Of a stretch of 29,081 bases of DNA, positions 3,701 to 13,652 are shown one piece after another. Numbering within the stretch: position 1 is the first letter of the stretch; each line of letters begins with the position of its first letter. A model generated the notes under the pieces. It worked only from the letters and a program-made list of their open reading frames with translations, was not told the origin of the DNA and searched no databases. The DNA is from Patescibacteria group bacterium. GTDB lineage: Bacteria; Patescibacteriota; Patescibacteriia; JAGPKW01. Position numbers and translations under genes: made by a program. Where the stretch lies: NCBI GenBank assembly GCA_018053685.1, contig JAGPKW010000001.1, positions 1 to 29,081 on the forward strand. The letters run 5' to 3'.

Positions 3701-6700
3701 TATGATACTTTATTTATGTTAAGGGCACAAATTAAAGAGATAAAACAAAAAGCTCAAAAAGAAAATCCTGAATATGCTAAAATTATAGAACAGATGGAAG
3801 GTATGTATGATGCTGATTATAATGAAGAAGCATATGAAAGAGCATTAAGAAATGCAGAGATAAAATTTAAAAATCATCCAGATTTATTGGCTAAATGGAA
3901 AAAGACATATCAAATAGAAAAATATTCTCAAGAGTGGTATGATAGAAGGAATGCAATATATGATAGATTAGGAGAAATATTTGGTAAAGATGATGTTTTA
4001 GATGCTTTATATGCAAGGAGAAATGAAATTAAAGCAAGATATAAACAAAATTATGTTTATAATCCTATATTTTACACTACAGATGAAATTAATGAATTAG
4101 ATGAAATTGATAAAGAGATAGCTGATTATATAGAGAACAAGCCAAAATATTCATTCTCTATAGAAGAAAGACAAGAAATTAAAGATTTAAAGAATGAATT
4201 AGCATCTATTCAAGAAAGCATATTATCTCCATTTTATGTTGAAAGATTTAATGAAAGAACAGACATTATGATAGCAAGAAGAAATGCTATGAATGCAGCT
4301 GCAAGTATATTAGAAAATAAACAAAAAAGATTTAAAGATAAAAATAGCACTATCACAGAAGAAGAATTGATGATGGCAGAAATGAAATATATACAAGCAG
4401 AAAATGATTTTGCAAATGTATGGAGTGAATATAGAGATTATTATAACAAATATCATGAAGATAAGTTAGGAGAATTTGATTATTTAAGATTTAATAGAGA
4501 TAGAGCAATTCCAAAATCATTTAATTATATATATAGACCTATATCTCAAAAATATATTCAAATAGTTGGTAATCCTAATTATTTTACAAAATACAATATA
4601 AAAGATGAAGCAAGAAATCCTAATTATGTTGAAGGAGTAGAAAATATGCCTTTACCTAAAGGAGTAATAAGTATAGGAGATGGTGTATATGATTTAACTC
4701 CAGAAGGAATGATGAATCCATATGTTAATCAAAAATTTAAAGATATAGTTGCTGATAAAGATTACAAAGATTATTATGATAAACTTACTACTTATTATTT
4801 TGGCTTACAGAAAAAGATGATAGGTAAAAAGATGGGATATGAAGTTCCTGGATATGCAGAAGATAAAATGGAAAATTTTAGTAGGTATGGATTTTTTAAA
4901 GGTTTATCTAGAGAAATAGCTAAGAAAATTGATAAACACATGAAGTTTGAAGGTTCACAACAAGATTATGTAGAGAATGTGTTTGGAGATTTGGGAGTTA
5001 TTAGAAGCAGATTTACAAGGCAATTAACAGAGGATATTCAAACCACAGATGCTATCAATGCTATTTATAAATTTGCTGTGGAAGCTCATTATAATAGTTC
5101 TATGCAAGAAGTACAACCACAAACAGAAGGAGCTATAGAATATTTTAAACAAATGATAAGGGATTTGGAGACTACTCAATCAGCAAATCCTGCAATGCAG
5201 AAAGAAATTGAAAAAAGAATTAAAGAATGGAGATATGCTGTAGAAGTATTAGAGTTTGAAAAAAGAAAATATATACAAGGACAAATTGATGACAGTCAAC
5301 AAAGAAAATTAAAAAAAGTAGTTAACTTATTATTTCAACACGTAAGTTTGATGAGGCTTGGTTTTGATGTTACCAATCAGTTAAAGAATTTTACAGCAGC
5401 ATCAGTACAAATGTGGTTACAAGCAGGTGGTGGTAGTAATCATTATTCTCAAAAAAATATGATGACAGCCTATAGAAAGGTTTTTGGAATAAATGGTGTT
5501 ATATCTAATTATTTAAAAGATTGGGGTAAAATCCATGATTTACATGAATCTACAATGTTATATAGAATGATGAATCCTTTGCAAAAAGATATGATAAAAT
5601 ACTACAAACAAATAACAGGTGGTAGATTAAGAAGGATGGGAGATAGATTAACTGATTTTATGGAATTAGGATATATGGTCCAAGATAAGGGAGACACAAT
5701 GATAGGTATGTTGGTTATGCATGCTGTTATGGATTCATACAAATATAAAAAGATAGATCCAATAACAAAACAACCTGTATTGGAAGATGGTAAACCTGTA
5801 TTAATTCCAGCTTCTGAATGTTATATTCAAAAACCTGATGGTACTTTAGAGATAAGAAATGATGTTGAATATACTATAGAAGATCAGTTAAAATTAAGAA
5901 GAATTATTGTAGCAGAATTAAGGAGAGCACAAGGTAACTATGCAACATCAGATATGACTAGAATGGAAGCTAATACTATTGGTAAATTAATGTTTTTCTA
6001 TAGAAAATATTTAGTACCATTGATGTTAAATAGATTTGGCATATTAAGACCATCTTGGGAAACAGGAGAAGCTACATTAGGATATTGGAGAGCATTAGCT
6101 CAAGCATATGGGGCTTTTGGTGCTAAAGCTACATTAAAACAATTCTTATTAGGTAATTTTACTAATAAGTTTGAAGATGGTGTAAGCAAATTAACATATA
6201 TTGATAATGCTAAAAATGGTAAACAAGAAATATATGAACTAGGAGATATATATGCAAGGAAAATCAATCATGCTTCAAGAGATGCTTTAGCAATGATAAT
6301 ACTTCTATCATTATCTATGATGGCATTGGGGGCTTTAAGAAGAAGGGATGATGATGATGAACCTGTAGATATTGTTACAGGGAATCTAATAAGAATATTA
6401 TGGGGTACAACAGGAGAAGCTACTAGTGTCTTTCCTTTTGGGGCAGGTACAGATGAGTATATTAGAAACTTTAGTACAGCATTACCTATGGCAAGAGAAT
6501 TATCAAAAGCATATCAAACAGTAGATAGATTGTTTAAAACAGCATTTGTGATGATAGCAGGTCAAGGAGAAGAACCAGATCCAGATATTGATGCTAATTG
6601 GTATGTAGAGTGGTATAAAGATGTGTTTTATACATCTTCATCATCAGGTTATCCAGAAGGTACAATGAAACTGAAAAAAGATTTACATGATTTAACAGGA

Positions 6701-7952: not shown

Positions 7953-8402
7953 TTATTCTTCACATTCTCCTAATGCAAATTTATTCATGTATAATAAGAT
8001 TCTATTAAGATCTTCTTTAGGGATAAATATTATATTAGGATCTTTTACCCATTTAAATTTAGGTTCATTAATAAAAGGCAATTTAATGTTCTTTAATGAT
8101 AAAGCATATATTATTTGAACATCTTGATTACCTTCATAAATATCATCAACTATAAATAAAGGTTCAAATGTTTTGTTAAATAATATATTCTTTTTATGAT
8201 CTTTTTCTAAAAAAAATAAGTTAAGATTAGCATTATGATATAAATATTGTGATATACAACCATACAATCCCTCATTATAATCTAATTTTGCAGTAGGAAT
8301 AGTATATGTATTTTCTCCTACTTGTTCCATAAGCAAATATCTATCATCTTCTATTATAATAGATAGCATTATTCTTGAAACTAGACCTCTTTGTTTTTCC
8401 AT
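7953..8402 (-). CDS. Nudix-fold protein with degenerate Nudix box
   Basis: YLLMEQ...YTIPTAKLDYNEGLYGCISQYLYHNANL keeps the exact spacing of GX5EX7REUXEEXGU but retains only the first E. Confidence 0.55.
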   Translation of the reverse strand: MEKQRGLVSRIMLSIIIEDDRYLLMEQVGENTYTIPTAKLDYNEGLYGCISQYLYHNANLNLFFLEKDHKKNILFNKTFEPLFIVDDIYEGNQDVQIIYALSLKNIKLPFINEPKFKWVKDPNIIFIPKEDLNRILLYMNKFALGECEE

Positions 8403-8417
8403 AATTATAATATATTT

Positions 8418-9002
8418 TTATTCTGTTCCATAATATTGAAAGCCATTTTCTTGATTATCAATACTATCTTCATTATATAATATGTCTGCTAATGTTGAAG
8501 ATGTTACACTACCAGCTGTTTTTTTTATAAAATATTTAGAATTTCTTAAATATGTATAGTCATCATTAAAAGATGCAATATACTTTTTAGTTATTCTCAA
8601 CACATCACTCCATGAATATTCAGGATACTTATCAAAGAACCAAATGAAAGATTCTCTAAGTTCTTTTGGGTTAGCTCTATAATATACAGTAGAATTTCCC
8701 ATTCTTTCTTTAGGAAACATTTCATTATATTTCTGTATATTATCATCCCATTCTTTGTTGGTTATTGATTTATTAGAACTTGCCATTACCTTTTCAACAC
8801 CTTGTAATAATTTAATGCCTTTATCAGTAATTTCATAATTATCATTATTTTTAATTAAATAACCATATTGTTCTAATCTTTTTAATTCAACAATAACATT
8901 TATATAATTGGAATATCCAACTTTTTTATAATAAGTATATAGAGCTAATAATCCATTTGGTGTGATGTTGTTTTTTATTAAATATTTAATTACTTTTTCC
9001 AT
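8418..9002 (-). CDS. Conserved phage protein with winged-HTH-like N-terminus (possible replication initiator/organiser)
   Basis: LKRLEQYGYLIK...YEITDKGIKLL is a wHTH-like pattern. The C-terminal YNEMFP...FIWFFDKYPEYSW...SKYFIKK region resembles phage replication proteins (inference). Confidence 0.5.
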   Translation of the reverse strand: MEKVIKYLIKNNITPNGLLALYTYYKKVGYSNYINVIVELKRLEQYGYLIKNNDNYEITDKGIKLLQGVEKVMASSNKSITNKEWDDNIQKYNEMFPKERMGNSTVYYRANPKELRESFIWFFDKYPEYSWSDVLRITKKYIASFNDDYTYLRNSKYFIKKTAGSVTSSTLADILYNEDSIDNQENGFQYYGTE

Positions 9003-9137: not shown

Positions 9138-9365
9138 TCAACTACCTATATCTATCTCAAAATCAATTTCACGTTTATTGCAGTCATATTGCTGCTCGAT
9201 TTGAGCTTTTATCTTATCGTATAGGTTGCATTCATCATAGGTTAATGTAGTATTCCATTCTAAAAATTTAGTCAATTTCATTCTTTTTAATATTTCTACT
9301 AACACATCAGACTTATCTCGTGTTCGTCCATTGCTTAACCATAATTTAATCTTAAAAACTTTCAT
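9138..9365 (-). CDS. Hypothetical protein (75 aa)
   Basis: ATG preceded by AAAATT; co-oriented in the operon. Confidence 0.7.
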   Translation of the reverse strand: MKVFKIKLWLSNGRTRDKSDVLVEILKRMKLTKFLEWNTTLTYDECNLYDKIKAQIEQQYDCNKREIDFEIDIGS

Positions 9366-9413: not shown

Positions 9414-9662
9414 TTATTCAAATTCAATATTAGCATATTGTACAGGGTAATAATATATTAATTCCCCATCATTTCTTGGTTTTAAATTATAGTACAGACT
9501 ATCTCCATCCATTGTGACGTTATATACCTTTTTCCCGTTTATTTTTTTTACTTTGTCAATATTCTTTTTAATTTCGTTTTTTTTGTCCGAAATATCTCGA
9601 ACAATCTCACTTAATGTATCTTCTATCTGTGTTTCTAAGCCAATCGATTCTAATGTTTTCAT
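9414..9662 (-). CDS. Hypothetical protein (82 aa)
   Basis: ACAGAATTATG start context; co-oriented. Confidence 0.7.
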   Translation of the reverse strand: MKTLESIGLETQIEDTLSEIVRDISDKKNEIKKNIDKVKKINGKKVYNVTMDGDSLYYNLKPRNDGELIYYYPVQYANIEFE

Positions 9663-9725
9663 AATTCTGTTGTTTAATTGTTATCACTCATGATTATTAT
9701 TCATTTTAAAACATTCGTAAAATAC

Positions 9726-9738
9726 GTTATATGTAATT
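9726..9738 (+). mobile_element. attC-like half site (R'-like GTTATATGTAATT), possible cassette integration scar
   Basis: C^GTTA lies 13 nt from the stop of the 9739 gene, the same geometry as the two full elements. It matches 11/13 to the reverse complement of AACTACACATAAC (10019-10031). There is no hairpin to its left. Confidence 0.55.
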
Positions 9739-9972
9739 TTACCAATAGAACTCATCAATCTTAATATTAAACCCTTGTAAACCTTTTATTAATTCAACAA
9801 AATTATCATATTGATTATCACCAATAATTCCAGTTGTTGTTATTTTACCATCTACTATTTCTATATCACCAATTTTTTCACTATTTTGTCTAATTGACAT
9901 CAAATGTTGATCTCTTTGTAAATCAAGTTTGTCTGATTTATAATTTTCATTGAATTTTTTAATGTGTATCAT
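9739..9972 (-). CDS. Hypothetical protein (77 aa), cargo of putative cassette B
   Basis: AAAATTATG start; lies between the half-site and element 1. Confidence 0.75.
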   Translation of the reverse strand: MIHIKKFNENYKSDKLDLQRDQHLMSIRQNSEKIGDIEIVDGKITTTGIIGDNQYDNFVELIKGLQGFNIKIDEFYW

Positions 9973-10018
9973 AATTTTAATTATTTTCTAAGTATATATT
10001 AAATTTAATTTCCCAAAA

Positions 10019-10123
10019 AACTACACATAACAAGGTGTATAAGAAAGTTTGCTATAAAATTCAGTGATAATTTGAAAGTTCATCTAAGCAAACCTTCTCA
10101 TACACCCAACCGTTAGCAAACAT
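10019..10123 (+). mobile_element. attC-like palindromic element 1
   Basis: ACATAAC (10025-10031) ... GTTAGCA (10112-10118). Inner stem GGTGTATAAGAAAGTTTGCT (10034-10053) / AGCAAACCTTCTCATACACC (10087-10106) pairs 18/20, and both mismatches are G-T on the minus strand. The loop is 33 nt. Confidence 0.7.
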
Positions 10124-10534
10124 TTAAAAGACCTCCGTTGTAATAACATCTGAGTATCTATTAATTTTGCCATATCTTGCCCACCAAGTATCACCTTGTG
10201 GAAACGTAAGTTCTTCTGCATCTTTTGTAAATTGATGCTTATACCAAGTTCCTTTTTTAATTTTTCTATACCATTTGAATTTACCTAAGTAAACATCTAA
10301 CCAAGTTTGTTTCATAAAAATATAGGAATAATCCCAAACATTAACACTATTCTTGTCCATTGCATTTAACCCTTGCTGAAAAACATCTATTGAAATTGAA
10401 ACCCTGATATAGTCTTCATAGGTTGTAAGGCAAATAGTTGTTTCATTTTCAGAATTTGAAAAAAAGTAAGATACATTTGAAAGATTAATAATTATATCTT
10501 TCCCATCGGTGTTTTTTACCTTGATAAATTTCAT
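10124..10534 (-). CDS. Hypothetical protein (136 aa from ATG 10534), possibly a two-domain chimera with FlbD/SwrD-like N-terminus
   Basis: The tracked GTG start at 10555 lies inside element 2; ATTATG at 10534 is the better start. MKFIKVKNTDGKDIIINLSNV...TTICL...V resembles the FlbD pattern. An internal MKQTW begins a Trp/Lys-rich second half. Confidence 0.65.
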   Translation of the reverse strand: MKFIKVKNTDGKDIIINLSNVSYFFSNSENETTICLTTYEDYIRVSISIDVFQQGLNAMDKNSVNVWDYSYIFMKQTWLDVYLGKFKWYRKIKKGTWYKHQFTKDAEELTFPQGDTWWARYGKINRYSDVITTEVF

Positions 10535-10540
10535 AATAAT

Positions 10541-10684
10541 AACTGCACATAACACTGTATAAAATCAAGTGGAGTTATGTGCTTAATTTAACCCACTTCG
10601 GCTGTTTAGATATTTTTGTGCAAGTAGGAACGTGTTTGCCGTTCAATCCCTACCTGCTTTTATACTTTTACGTTATGCAGCAGC
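10541..10684 (+). mobile_element. attC-like palindromic element 2 (branched)
   Basis: AACTGCACATAAC (10541-10553; 12/13 identical to the element 1 end) ... GTTATGC (10672-10678). Outer stem GTATAAAA (10557-10564) / TTTTATAC (10658-10665). Two inner hairpins at 10567-10598 and 10620-10657. Confidence 0.65.
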
Positions 10685-11134
10685 TTAAAAAAGACCGCAT
10701 TTAGTGTGTCTGTCATATAAAACTATACTCCCTGCAACGGCGACATTCATACTTCGAGTTCCGGGCAAATAAATAATTTCTTGACATTTTTCAATTGCTT
10801 CTTTTGTTAATCCATTATCTTCTGCACCGAGCAAATAGCAAGCCTGTTTAGGGTGTTTAAATTCAGTTAACTTTGTTGCAGTTTCAACAAGTTCAATCCC
10901 TACTAATTTACAATCATGTGGGCGGTGTTCGTTAAAGTCGGCAAAATCTTTATAAATAAATGTCGGTATATGTTTCCAACTTTTCATTGTGTCACTTGCT
11001 TGTGGTTTAAATCTACTCCCAATTAGGAAAATAAAGTCCGCTTCTAAAATTTGGGCAGTTCTAAAAAGAGTGCCATAGTTATGTGATGTTTTCATATTTA
11101 AACATCCAATCCCAAAATATCCTTTGTCTTTCAT
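10685..11134 (-). CDS. SPOUT RNA methyltransferase, TrmH/SpoU family
   Basis: Motif 1 NMKTSHNYGTLFRTA, motif 2 YLLGAEDNGL, motif 3 IYLPGTRSMNVAVAGSIVLYD. Confidence 0.9.
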   Translation of the reverse strand: MKDKGYFGIGCLNMKTSHNYGTLFRTAQILEADFIFLIGSRFKPQASDTMKSWKHIPTFIYKDFADFNEHRPHDCKLVGIELVETATKLTEFKHPKQACYLLGAEDNGLTKEAIEKCQEIIYLPGTRSMNVAVAGSIVLYDRHTKCGLF

Positions 11135-11206
11135 AATTCTGTTTTTTAAATTTATTTAGTTATTCGTTTGCTCTTAACCTTGTTGTTTGATTGGTTGCAA
11201 CCCTGT

Positions 11207-11470
11207 TTAGCATAGCATTTCAATTACAATGTCTTCATTCTCTTTAAAAAACCGTTCAACCGTTTTAATCCTCTTTCCGTTTAGAAATTCCAAGCAATCC
11301 GGAGCTTCTACAATCGTTTTTTCTGTTGCAATAAAAACAAATGGGTAAAAAAACCATCGTGAACCCATATTATTAATTTCCTCTGAAATAGACTCCTTTG
11401 AGTCACTGTAAAAATCCCTTACATACTCACCGTCCGGAGCAAAGCAAATAGCACTGTAAATTGTTTTCAT
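11207..11470 (-). CDS. Hypothetical protein (87 aa)
   Basis: ACAATTATG start; co-oriented. Confidence 0.75.
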   Translation of the reverse strand: MKTIYSAICFAPDGEYVRDFYSDSKESISEEINNMGSRWFFYPFVFIATEKTIVEAPDCLEFLNGKRIKTVERFFKENEDIVIEMLC

Positions 11471-11510
11471 AATTGTTTGTTTTTTAATTGTTCTTTAATT
11501 ATTTCATATA

Positions 11511-11726: not shown

Positions 11727-11947
11727 AATTTATTTTTTTTTAAATCATTATCAATTATATCTGTTAAATAGCTGTCTGTACAACAGTTTGGACAACCCCA
11801 ATAAAATTTTCCACCACTATAAAAATGTATCATATTATTAATAGGTTCTTCTATTGTAGTAATATCTATTAAGACAGAATTTTCACCTGGATTTTCATCA
11901 AATAATATAGAATCACACCTATTACACTTGCATAAATAATGTTTCAT
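11723..11947 (-). CDS. Small Zn-ribbon-like protein
   Basis: CNRC ... CPNC cysteine pairs. Confidence 0.65.
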   Translation of the reverse strand: MKHYLCKCNRCDSILFDENPGENSVLIDITTIEEPINNMIHFYSGGKFYWGCPNCCTDSYLTDIIDNDLKKNKL

Positions 11948-11991
11948 TTTATTTTTATTTTTAAGTTGATTAATATTTTTGTTATATCTAT

Positions 11992-12222
11992 TTAAAGCTC
12001 TATGAAAGAAAATTTTGGAACTACTAATTTAAGTTTTTCAAAATCCTCATCACGTTCTTTTTTCTCTGCGTACCAATAAGTTGTATCCTCTACATCCAAA
12101 GCATGGGGGTAATCGAAAGTTGGATCGTAACTTTTTGCTACTGTAATAGGAACATCAAAAGATTCAATTTTTTGAATATCAAAACTCAAATCTCCGTTGT
12201 TAAATTTAATAAATGGTATCAT
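11992..12222 (-). CDS. Hypothetical protein (76 aa)
   Basis: ATAATTATG start; co-oriented. Confidence 0.7.
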   Translation of the reverse strand: MIPFIKFNNGDLSFDIQKIESFDVPITVAKSYDPTFDYPHALDVEDTTYWYAEKKERDEDFEKLKLVVPKFSFIEL

Positions 12223-12680: not shown

Positions 12681-13652
12681 TTATTTAACTTCAGTTTCAA
12701 AAACAGTTTCCCCCGTTTCATTACAAATTATTGAAACAGTTCCGCCCTTATAATCTTTAAAATAAGAATGATTTGTTCCGTTGTATTCTTCAATATAACT
12801 TAAACAGTCATCGTAACTATCTATGAAACCTTTATAATTACTATCTTGTTCATTGTTAAAATGAACATCATAAGTTAAGTCGTACATCATTGCGTAATGA
12901 TATTTATCGTTTTCAAATTCATTTCTTATAGGTTTTTCTAAATACTCTTTCCCATTAAGTAACTTCCCATTTTTGTATTTACTTCTTTTAACACCATCTT
13001 CTCCATATACTCCCCATTGCTTAAAGAAAAATGGCACATGATATAATTCACATTGTTCTTTAATGTTTAACACCCATTCTTTATTCATTTTTCTAGCATT
13101 ATGACCACTTTCGCCACCAACTATTACCCAATCAATAAGATTTAGGTCTAATTTACCCAAATCCTCTAACAATGGCTCACATGAGATGAATTTAACAATA
13201 GCATTTAATTGTTTTAAATATTGTATTCTATCTCTTGCTTTTTTATTTTCAACAGTAACTCCTAACCATACATTTTTAGGGATAGTTCTACCATGTAAAT
13301 ATTTATACATATTAATAGCTCTTTTGGTTAAAATTTGATATGTGTGTTGTGGGGTTTGTCTTATGACATCAAATACTCTATCTATAAATGAATAAGGAAC
13401 TTCTTCATGGAAAAGATCACTCATGCTACAAACAAATATCATAGTGGGATTTGTTAATTTTAATGGTTCATTTAAATAATCTTCATGTAAAGTTATTTTA
13501 TCAAAACCATTTTTATATTTATCTAGGTCCATTGCTTGTAATCTTTTTGTCATTCTTTCAGCATAACAATTCTTACATCCATCAGATATTTTTGTACATC
13601 CTGTAATGGGATTCCATGTTGTTTCAGTCCATTCTATTTTTGATTTCTTCAT
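12681..13652 (-). CDS. DUF5131 (phage Gp37/Gp68, radical-SAM-like) protein with an 82-aa C-terminal extension
   Basis: IEWTETTWNPITGCTKISDGCKNCYA, IFVCSMSDLFH, QILTKR, WLGVTVEN, FISCEPLL, WVIVGGESG, FFFKQWG. Confidence 0.9.
   Translation of the reverse strand: MKKSKIEWTETTWNPITGCTKISDGCKNCYAERMTKRLQAMDLDKYKNGFDKITLHEDYLNEPLKLTNPTMIFVCSMSDLFHEEVPYSFIDRVFDVIRQTPQHTYQILTKRAINMYKYLHGRTIPKNVWLGVTVENKKARDRIQYLKQLNAIVKFISCEPLLEDLGKLDLNLIDWVIVGGESGHNARKMNKEWVLNIKEQCELYHVPFFFKQWGVYGEDGVKRSKYKNGKLLNGKEYLEKPIRNEFENDKYHYAMMYDLTYDVHFNNEQDSNYKGFIDSYDDCLSYIEEYNGTNHSYFKDYKGGTVSIICNETGETVFETEVK

Follow-up and report, generated by a model that had tools for sequence, protein, structure and literature searches.

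Genes and hairpins of the locus

The stretch of DNA considered here, called the window throughout, comprises 29,081 nucleotides and is an entire 29-kb contig (JAGPKW010000001.1) from a 0.93-Mb bin (27% G+C) filed under a Patescibacteria group bacterium. The contig looks like that of a phage and encodes an amidase, a Toprim primase, a DnaB-like helicase, a Sak4-like AAA_24 protein, PD-(D/E)XK nucleases and a protein of 2004 aa. On its minus strand, between positions 9726 and 11134, lie three consecutive genes separated by two long imperfect palindromes, named E1 and E2 (Table 1), which an earlier note, made from the sequence alone, had described as an integron-like array of gene cassettes without an integrase. 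This array, its relatives in other viral genomes and the enzyme that may move its cassettes are the subject of the present work.

The stop codons of the three genes are located 12–13 nt from a GTTA motif, the G of which is at 9726, 10112 and 10672, as the sequence and the list of open reading frames (ORFs) confirm. E1 is delimited by ACATAAC (10025–10031) and GTTA (10112–10115), and its 20-nt arms (10034–10053 and 10087–10106) are 90% complementary; on the gene-sense strand it reads AAC, the spacer GGTTG, a stem of 20–21 bp with two G.T pairs, a second spacer and the R' box GTTATGTGTAGTTT. E2, delimited by ACATAAC (10548–10554) and GTTA (10672–10675), reads AAC, the spacer GTAAAA, a branched stem, the spacer AGT and the R' box GTTATGTGCAGTTA. 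Several features attributed to both elements in the earlier note are indeed present, namely the common end AACT[A/G]CACATAAC, the inner GTAT/ATAC boxes, the asymmetry of the spacers (5 vs 2 nt in E1 and 6 vs 3 nt in E2 on the gene-sense strand) and stem mismatches that are G.T on the minus strand; likewise, the site at 9726 lacks a hairpin (fold z-score +1.6), and thus represents the last junction of the array. In the loop of E2, at 10567–10598, there is an inner hairpin that provides a second R''-like sequence (GCACATAAC on the sense strand), so that E2, of which a near copy occurs in the locus L062 in a different context, may represent a nested or composite site.

Table 1. Coordinates in the window of the genes, hairpins and end boxes of the array.
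Feature	Position	Strand	Remarks
End box (R'') of cassette B	9726..9739	(-)	sense strand AAATTACATATAAC; border between 9726 and 9727
Gene 1	9739-9972	(-)	77 aa, no known family; cargo of cassette B
Hairpin element E1	10018..10114	(-)	putative recombination site of cassette B
End box (R'') of gene 2	10112..10125	(-)	sense strand AAATGTTTGCTAAC; cassette C/B border between 10112 and 10113
Gene 2	10124-10534	(-)	136 aa
Hairpin element E2	10541..10674	(-)	branched stem
End box (R'') of SpoU gene	10672..10685	(-)	sense strand AGCTGCTGCATAAC; border between 10672 and 10673
SpoU/TrmH-family RNA 2'-O-methyltransferase gene	10685-11134	(-)	149 aa; PF00588 E = 1.6e-24, also NCBIfam

Both elements fold better on the minus strand. 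As RNA, E1 reaches -36.2 kcal/mol on this strand (z-score -5.3) vs -21.3 on the plus strand, and E2 reaches -43.0 kcal/mol (z-score -3.9) vs -33.3 (z-score -1.5), and DNA parameters rank the strands in the same way. Moreover, E1 is the strongest 120-nt fold of the whole window (-36.9, vs a mean of -14.7 with a standard deviation of 4.9). Its stem is unbroken and deviates from perfect pairing by G.T pairs only, so that the extrahelical bases of classical attC sites are absent from it, as they are from the hairpin of a methyltransferase cassette discussed below. Scans of the window against Rfam (E up to 1) and for tRNA genes gave no matches, and no other convincing hairpin elements turned up in the remainder of the bin, its four weak matches having flanking boxes without the TAAC of the family.

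The three genes are in different states. Cassette B, which consists of gene 1 and E1, is intact, and the box at 9726–9739 agrees with the R' box of E1 at 12 of 14 positions. Two cassette ORFs appear to have fused to form gene 2, since its residues 1–64 match the locus L008 only and its residues 73–136 match L002–L007; metagenome contigs break inside it, at 10323, and a cassette in L092 has an R' box, GTTAGCAAACGTTT, that agrees with the end box of gene 2. The SpoU gene is cassette cargo that has lost its upstream hairpin in the window and keeps only its end box, whereas in L012, L013 and L014 it is flanked by family hairpins with matching end boxes; the homology of the window gene to these relatives begins just 11 nt before its ATG. 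A search with the SpoU protein in cultured phages returned an unrelated mycobacteriophage as the sole match. Thus, the window contains two full hairpins, three borders, one intact cassette, one fused cassette and the SpoU gene with an end box alone. E1 is followed by a run of six T and by a near -7 motif, TAAATTTA, while no T-run follows E2 and the ATG of gene 2 is only 7 nt away, so that gene 2 would be read through the hairpin, plausibly by the leftward transcription of the phage.

The hairpin family and its borders in relatives

In IMG/VR relatives of the SpoU gene, hairpins similar to E1 and E2 form a family with one element per gene. On the gene-sense strand, each element consists of a box ending in AAC, which often includes the upstream stop codon, a spacer of 4–7 nt, a long stem (often GTATA...TATAC), a spacer of 1–4 nt and a box starting with GTTA, a layout that E1 and E2 share with the spacers given above. 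An 18-nt pattern taken from the end common to E1 and E2 and scanned over viral contigs retrieved 60 loci, and although chance hits had been expected to dominate, about half of the loci were judged to be true members on inspection, and some of them carry arrays of eight or nine elements. A loose detector of TAAC/TTA hairpins, the matches of which were no commoner than in shuffled sequence, was discarded, and stricter detectors were used. An unbiased stem scan provided 230 distinct hairpins from relatives, in which sense-strand G.T pairs number 396 vs 56 A.C pairs (p = 4e-64) and the 5' spacer is the longer one in 221 cases, the typical geometry being 5–6 by 1–3 nt. Both the excess of G.T pairs and the longer 5' spacer point to the sense strand as the folding strand. 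Together with the folds of the window elements, these counts bear out the view in the earlier note that the minus strand is the one that folds and that the ORFs lie antisense to those of classical cassettes. An exchange at AA^C on the sense strand equals G^TT on the other strand and, therefore, the genes are inverted relative to classical integron cassettes; on the antisense strand the unit reads TTRRRY, inverted ORF, RYYYAAC, hairpin and G, and the polarity originally proposed is thus right. The sole invariant part of the sites, across 84 plus 230 relatives, is AAC/GTT.

The cargo of these arrays is diverse and small, with 141 cassette ORFs falling into 102 clusters and a median unit of 488 nt; most of the ORFs belong to no Pfam family, and DNA methyltransferases recur among them. 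Cassette stop codons end either 1 nt or 11–13 nt before the C of AAC, the latter type being that of the window. A Bacteroidota-type -7 motif, TAnnTTTG, is found in 18% of cassette leaders vs 6% of shuffled ones.

Homology between the window and its relatives ends at these sites in the SpoU gene, in cassette B and in a metagenome contig, as would be the case if gene gain and loss broke at G^TT. The SpoU gene has 91% nucleotide identity to L012 and L013 only from 11145 to 10670, with the stop at 10670–10672, and the three sequences diverge right after GCATAAC into unrelated continuations. Cassette B has a homologue in the viral contig L043, where the product of gene 1 has 88% aa identity; the homology starts at the junction between TAAC and GGTTG, is interrupted in the upper part of the stem and in the loop, and continues from the 3' arm through the gene to end directly after ATAAC. 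Among contigs assembled from digester and wastewater metagenomes, one (run X8) diverges exactly before 9726. Thus, since the homology of relatives ends exactly at the three GTT sites, these sites are cassette borders. In addition, an N6/N4 DNA methyltransferase cassette made up of hairpin, leader, gene and end box is present in six contigs; its upstream junction, AAC followed by GGTTGGG, stands in four unrelated contexts, and its downstream junction, directly after ACATAAC, is followed by six unrelated continuations. The region of 9.3–12.4 kb is hyperplastic in the digester and wastewater contigs, where depth peaks on E1 and E2 and gene 2 is nearly absent; the RNA run covered neither E1 nor E2. 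Gene-size deletions were also seen in this region, from 11956 to 12222, from 11740 to 12218 and from 9662 to 11476, at hairpin-less gene starts that have the common motif TTTCATAATT.

The boxes at the two ends of a cassette match each other. In 52 neighbouring array pairs, the 14-nt box after hairpin n was compared with other boxes over 10 variable positions, and its mean identity to the box after gene n was 6.85/10, with at least 8 positions in agreement in 52% of the pairs, whereas the corresponding values were 3.50/10 and 4% for the 5' flank of the hairpin itself and 3.59/10 and 3% for random pairs across loci (gene-end vs own-flank match, Wilcoxon p = 8e-8). The recurrent single mismatch between matching boxes is a conserved sense-strand G.T pair. 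Matching ends of this kind are the hallmark of integron cassettes, the site of which is complete only while the cassette is an excised circle and becomes divided when it is inserted. In the window, AAATTACATATAAC after gene 1 is the pairing partner of the E1 box GTTATGTGTAGTTT, and the predicted circle junction of cassette B folds with -48.3 kcal/mol vs -38.3 in the genomic context with RNA parameters and, with DNA parameters, with -22.6 vs -16.5, the antisense strand giving -15.2. In the metagenome contigs, a joint from 10119 back to 9725, a step of 395 nt, places gene 1 before TTGCTAAC and E1, which is close to a circle or tandem junction and not equal to it.

Recombinase genes and cassette turnover

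Neither the window nor, in a search, the bin supplies an integron integrase. The absence of an integrase from the window, already stated in the earlier note, includes the genes downstream of 9726 (9414–9662, 9138–9365, 8418–9002 and 7953–8402), none of which is a recombinase gene, and the bin lacks IntI and has only generic Xer homologues with about 30% identity. The guess that the recombinase may belong to a distinct family fits what is found in relatives, where arrays abut the gene of an Xer-like tyrosine recombinase without the IntI insertion. In the records of five relatives, a tyrosine recombinase of 265–290 aa is encoded at the downstream end of the array and on the same strand. These enzymes are XerA-like (180–206 bits vs a cut-off of 220), match the IntI model with 140–170 bits (cut-off 265) in two pieces that skip profile positions 181–238, match IntI4 (PDB 2a3v) over the N-terminal part only, and keep the catalytic R, K, HxxR, H and Y. 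According to Smyshlyaev et al., integrons cannot function without the IntI insertion. In 80 viral loci with homologues of the recombinase, 254 family hairpins lie upstream of its gene on the same strand, 6 downstream and 11 on the other strand. Homologues from bacterial genomes, almost all of them from Bacteroidota, are mostly without arrays, which serves as a control of the detector and points to a phage-borne subfamily. The array-adjacent Xer-like tyrosine recombinase is probably the enzyme of the system.

Other observations concern this gene and its surroundings. The tyrosine recombinase of L017, which at first seemed an isolated case, belongs to the array-linked family as a diverged member. 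A perfect 10-nt inverted repeat, GTTAGCGTGC ... GCACGCTAAC, separates its gene from the SpoU gene (L017:6440–6660); the order of the repeat is the reverse of that in cassette hairpins, and it could be a primary (attI-like) site. Many IMG/VR contigs, L107–L109, L114, L132, L138 and L140 among them, stop within a few hundred bases upstream of the recombinase gene, which is where contig ends would be predicted if variable arrays broke assemblies. The array-linked recombinase gene of L105 (about 3858–4355, minus strand) has an in-frame TAG and may be a pseudogene or reflect a sequencing error. A likeness of the R' box to the XerD arm of dif was dropped, as it concerns one subfamily only and the box co-varies with its partner box.

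Homologues of the recombinase occur in cultured phages, namely Cellulophaga phage Ingeline and Polaribacter phages Freya and Leef, and the Freya isolates reveal the turnover of cassettes. The length differences between these isolates are confined to the stretch between one gene and the integrase gene, and Freya_1, 5, 6, 9 and 10 differ by whole cassettes that are cut directly after AAC, next to ACCCCTATAAC, upstream of the integrase gene. In Freya_1, TTTACAAC is joined directly to ACCCCTATAAC, 45 nt before the integrase ATG, whereas Freya_10 has, after the same AAC, a hairpin and a stretch of 4.9 kb containing twelve genes, which ends in TGCTAAC directly before ACCCCTATAAC. Freya_9 and Freya_5 carry no cassettes and their junctions again follow AAC. 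Moreover, Freya_6 (L189:477–918) has a 442-nt cassette beside the integrase gene that is not present in Freya_10, which shows gain as well as loss of cassettes among isolates from one host. The authors of the Freya paper took the integrase as a sign of possible lysogeny, and a term search of their text revealed no reference to arrays or to indels of cassettes.

Elsewhere in the window, the product of the gene at 12681–13652 is a DUF5131 protein (E = 1.2e-104), related by NCBIfam to 'radical SAM mobile pair protein A', and no other gene in that part of the window matches cultured Bacteroides phages at the DNA level.

A probable integron-like system of phages and its alternatives

The region 9726–10685 is best explained as a short mobile gene-cassette array belonging to an integron-like system of Bacteroidota phages, to which we assign a probability of roughly 0.8. 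This system is widespread and apparently undescribed, as no paper on the Xer-like enzyme, on the inversion of the cargo or on the rule of matching ends in phage arrays emerged from the literature searched. Cassette borders, matching ends, a strand bias, linkage to a recombinase gene and the gain and loss of whole cassettes all emerge from the comparison of related genomes. On the sense strand, a cassette begins with the C of AAC and comprises a 5–6 nt spacer, a long imperfect hairpin, a 1–3 nt spacer and a 14-nt box starting with GTTA, followed, in some cases after a promoter-bearing leader, by a single ORF and a second 14-nt box, which ends in TAA. Since the boxes at both ends of a cassette are complementary to each other, a circle excised from the array, or its single sense strand, would fold into a stem of 14–16 bp, an asymmetric internal loop and a long stem, thereby resembling a folded attC site, and the exchange would take place at the sense-strand AA^C, or G^TT on the opposite strand. 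In relatives, the array ends at a hairpin-less site directly upstream of the co-oriented gene for the 265–290 aa Xer-like tyrosine recombinase. Catalysis by this recombinase, the use of a folded single strand and present-day activity in the phage of the window would complete the proposed mechanism. The window itself has no recombinase and, therefore, its array is comparable to the clusters of attC sites lacking integrases (CALINs), being either a relic or a set of cassettes served in trans by a co-infecting relative. We lean, with confidence a little above even, towards the broader proposal that Bacteroidota phages own an analogue of the integron, in which a small Xer-like recombinase without the IntI insertion would shuffle single-gene cassettes via folded single-stranded hairpins cut at AA^C and recombinase-less arrays would be fed in trans during co-infection.

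Several observations weigh against a mobile cassette array. An Xer-like recombinase of the array-linked type is missing from the window and the bin, as well as from two complete relatives with a SpoU gene of this kind, and the record of Polaribacter phage P12002L, which has family hairpins, annotates no integrase. No excised circle was seen in the metagenome contigs, and the lone back-joint found in them (run X8) differs from the predicted junction of 10112 with 9727. The two ends of cassette C, which contains gene 2, are mismatched, agreeing at 2 of 10 positions. Some metagenome breakpoints lie a few nt off AAC (9721 and 10666), and gene-size indels occur also where there is no hairpin (from 11956 to 12222, in two runs); the plasticity of the region is thus not all site-specific. 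The sense-strand G.T bias is also compatible with an RNA role or with transcription-linked deamination. Finally, P12002L_attC1 yielded no recombinants with IntI1, a failure that argues only against IntI as the enzyme.

Some of these points would suit a different view, in which the hairpins function chiefly in the leftward transcript, as RNA elements such as terminators, attenuators, RNase III sites or 3' stabilisers, and act in addition as recombination linkers, through their conservation between co-infecting phages and by homologous or illegitimate recombination. Better folds on the transcribed strand through G.U pairs, the six-T run after E1, the hyperplastic region with its gene-size indels at hairpin-less gene starts, and the Sak4-like AAA_24 protein and PD-(D/E)XK nuclease that the phage encodes would all be in line with it, and the stem-loop elements known as PeSLs (promoter early stem-loops) of T4-type phages offer a precedent (PMC2839356, PMC4122927). 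Nevertheless, a terminator or a processing hairpin should have complementary flanks of its own, whereas the flanks of these hairpins match each other at the random level and it is the boxes flanking the gene that match; E2, without a T-run and 7 nt from an ATG, seems to leave no room for a strong terminator plus promoter; and neither the exact AAC junctions across many unrelated contexts nor the tight linkage of the arrays to a tyrosine recombinase gene would be expected. We consider this explanation unlikely as the main role of the hairpins, which could have an additional RNA role alongside recombination.

The sites might instead be ordinary attC sites, forming a CALIN that derives from bacterial integrons and is recombined by the IntI of a host. 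AAC...GTT cores, four boxes, stop codons that lie within or close to the first of these, and matching ends are all features of such sites, and Qi et al. 2023 (PMC9892861) described clusters of attC sites without an integrase in lytic phages, P12002L included, in which IntI1 recombined 5 of the 6 phage attC sites tested. The one site that failed, for which no verified recombinants were obtained (PMC9892861), was P12002L_attC1, and its primer sequence corresponds to the element at 29965–30090 of NC_028924, a member of the E1/E2 hairpin family. This failure, the stems without extrahelical bases, the spacers of 5–6 by 1–3 nt, the inverted ORFs, adjacent recombinases that lack the IntI insertion and match IntI4 only N-terminally, and a bin devoid of IntI together make ordinary attC sites a very improbable explanation. 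An even fainter chance is left to small non-autonomous mobile elements, either miniature inverted-repeat transposable elements (MITEs) or IS200/IS605-type palindromes, that would insert after TAAC with a transposase encoded elsewhere. Such elements would account for 'empty' AAC sites without a hairpin (9726 and P12002L), for a metagenome depth of hairpin copies above that of flanking genes, and for a single-strand bias like that of HUH-transposase substrates, but the hairpin moves with its downstream gene as a unit, the pairing partner of the box after the hairpin is the box that follows the gene and not a second end of the element, the linked enzyme is a tyrosine recombinase, and no transposase was seen in the loci examined, in which no systematic search for one was made.

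Integrons are the textbook device of bacterial gene capture, and if the phage arrays do operate as a cassette system, integron-type recombination would have arisen twice or would predate the IntI insertion. A cassette platform with a plain Xer-like enzyme, inverted cargo and another hairpin geometry would, moreover, bear on the evolution of single-strand recombination. Such a system would offer a mechanism by which the early regions of phages become mosaic gene by gene, account for the swapping of methyltransferases and other candidates for counter-defence by phages, and lead to a reinterpretation of the integrase of several flavobacterial phages, now taken as a sign of lysogeny. The cultured phages Freya, Ingeline and P12002L, which grow on Polaribacter and Cellulophaga, make the idea directly testable.

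The PeSL cassettes of T4-type phages (PMC2839356, PMC4122927) resemble the phage arrays in that stem-loops flank small accessory genes, mark hyperplastic regions and form the borders of indels and replacements. However, PeSLs are composite promoter-terminator motifs thought to act via homology between copies, whereas arrays of the type found in the window have fixed AAC borders, unrelated hairpin flanks and a linked, dedicated recombinase gene.

The likeness to integrons and CALINs goes further. Both have one-gene cassettes between imperfect palindromes in which only AAC/GTT is invariant, a layout of four boxes with an unpaired spacer, an exchange at G^TT, and matching cassette ends that restore a full site in the circle. 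Both also have a hairpin-less primary site beside a tyrosine recombinase gene, arrays without any recombinase, and a very diverse cargo of small genes, mostly of unknown function, that includes DNA methyltransferases. Nevertheless, the recombinase of the phage arrays is Xer/XerA-like and lacks the IntI insertion, and their ORFs lie on the folding strand, inverted and pointing toward the recombinase gene. Their hairpins have no extrahelical bases, polarity seemingly arising from the loop of 5–6 vs 1–3 nt and from the conserved G.T pair. In addition, the R stem of the phage arrays is 14 bp long, their hosts are Bacteroidota phages, and one family member failed with IntI1.

Xer-family enzymes also move discrete modules in other systems, namely the pdif modules of Acinetobacter plasmids and CTX-type phages, and the CTX phage integrates via XerCD with a folded single-stranded hairpin as the substrate. 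These systems depend on the XerC/XerD of the host and on dif-like sites of 28 bp, whereas the sites of the phage arrays share only AAC/GTT with the dif arms, are present once per gene, and are accompanied in relatives by an enzyme that the phage itself encodes.

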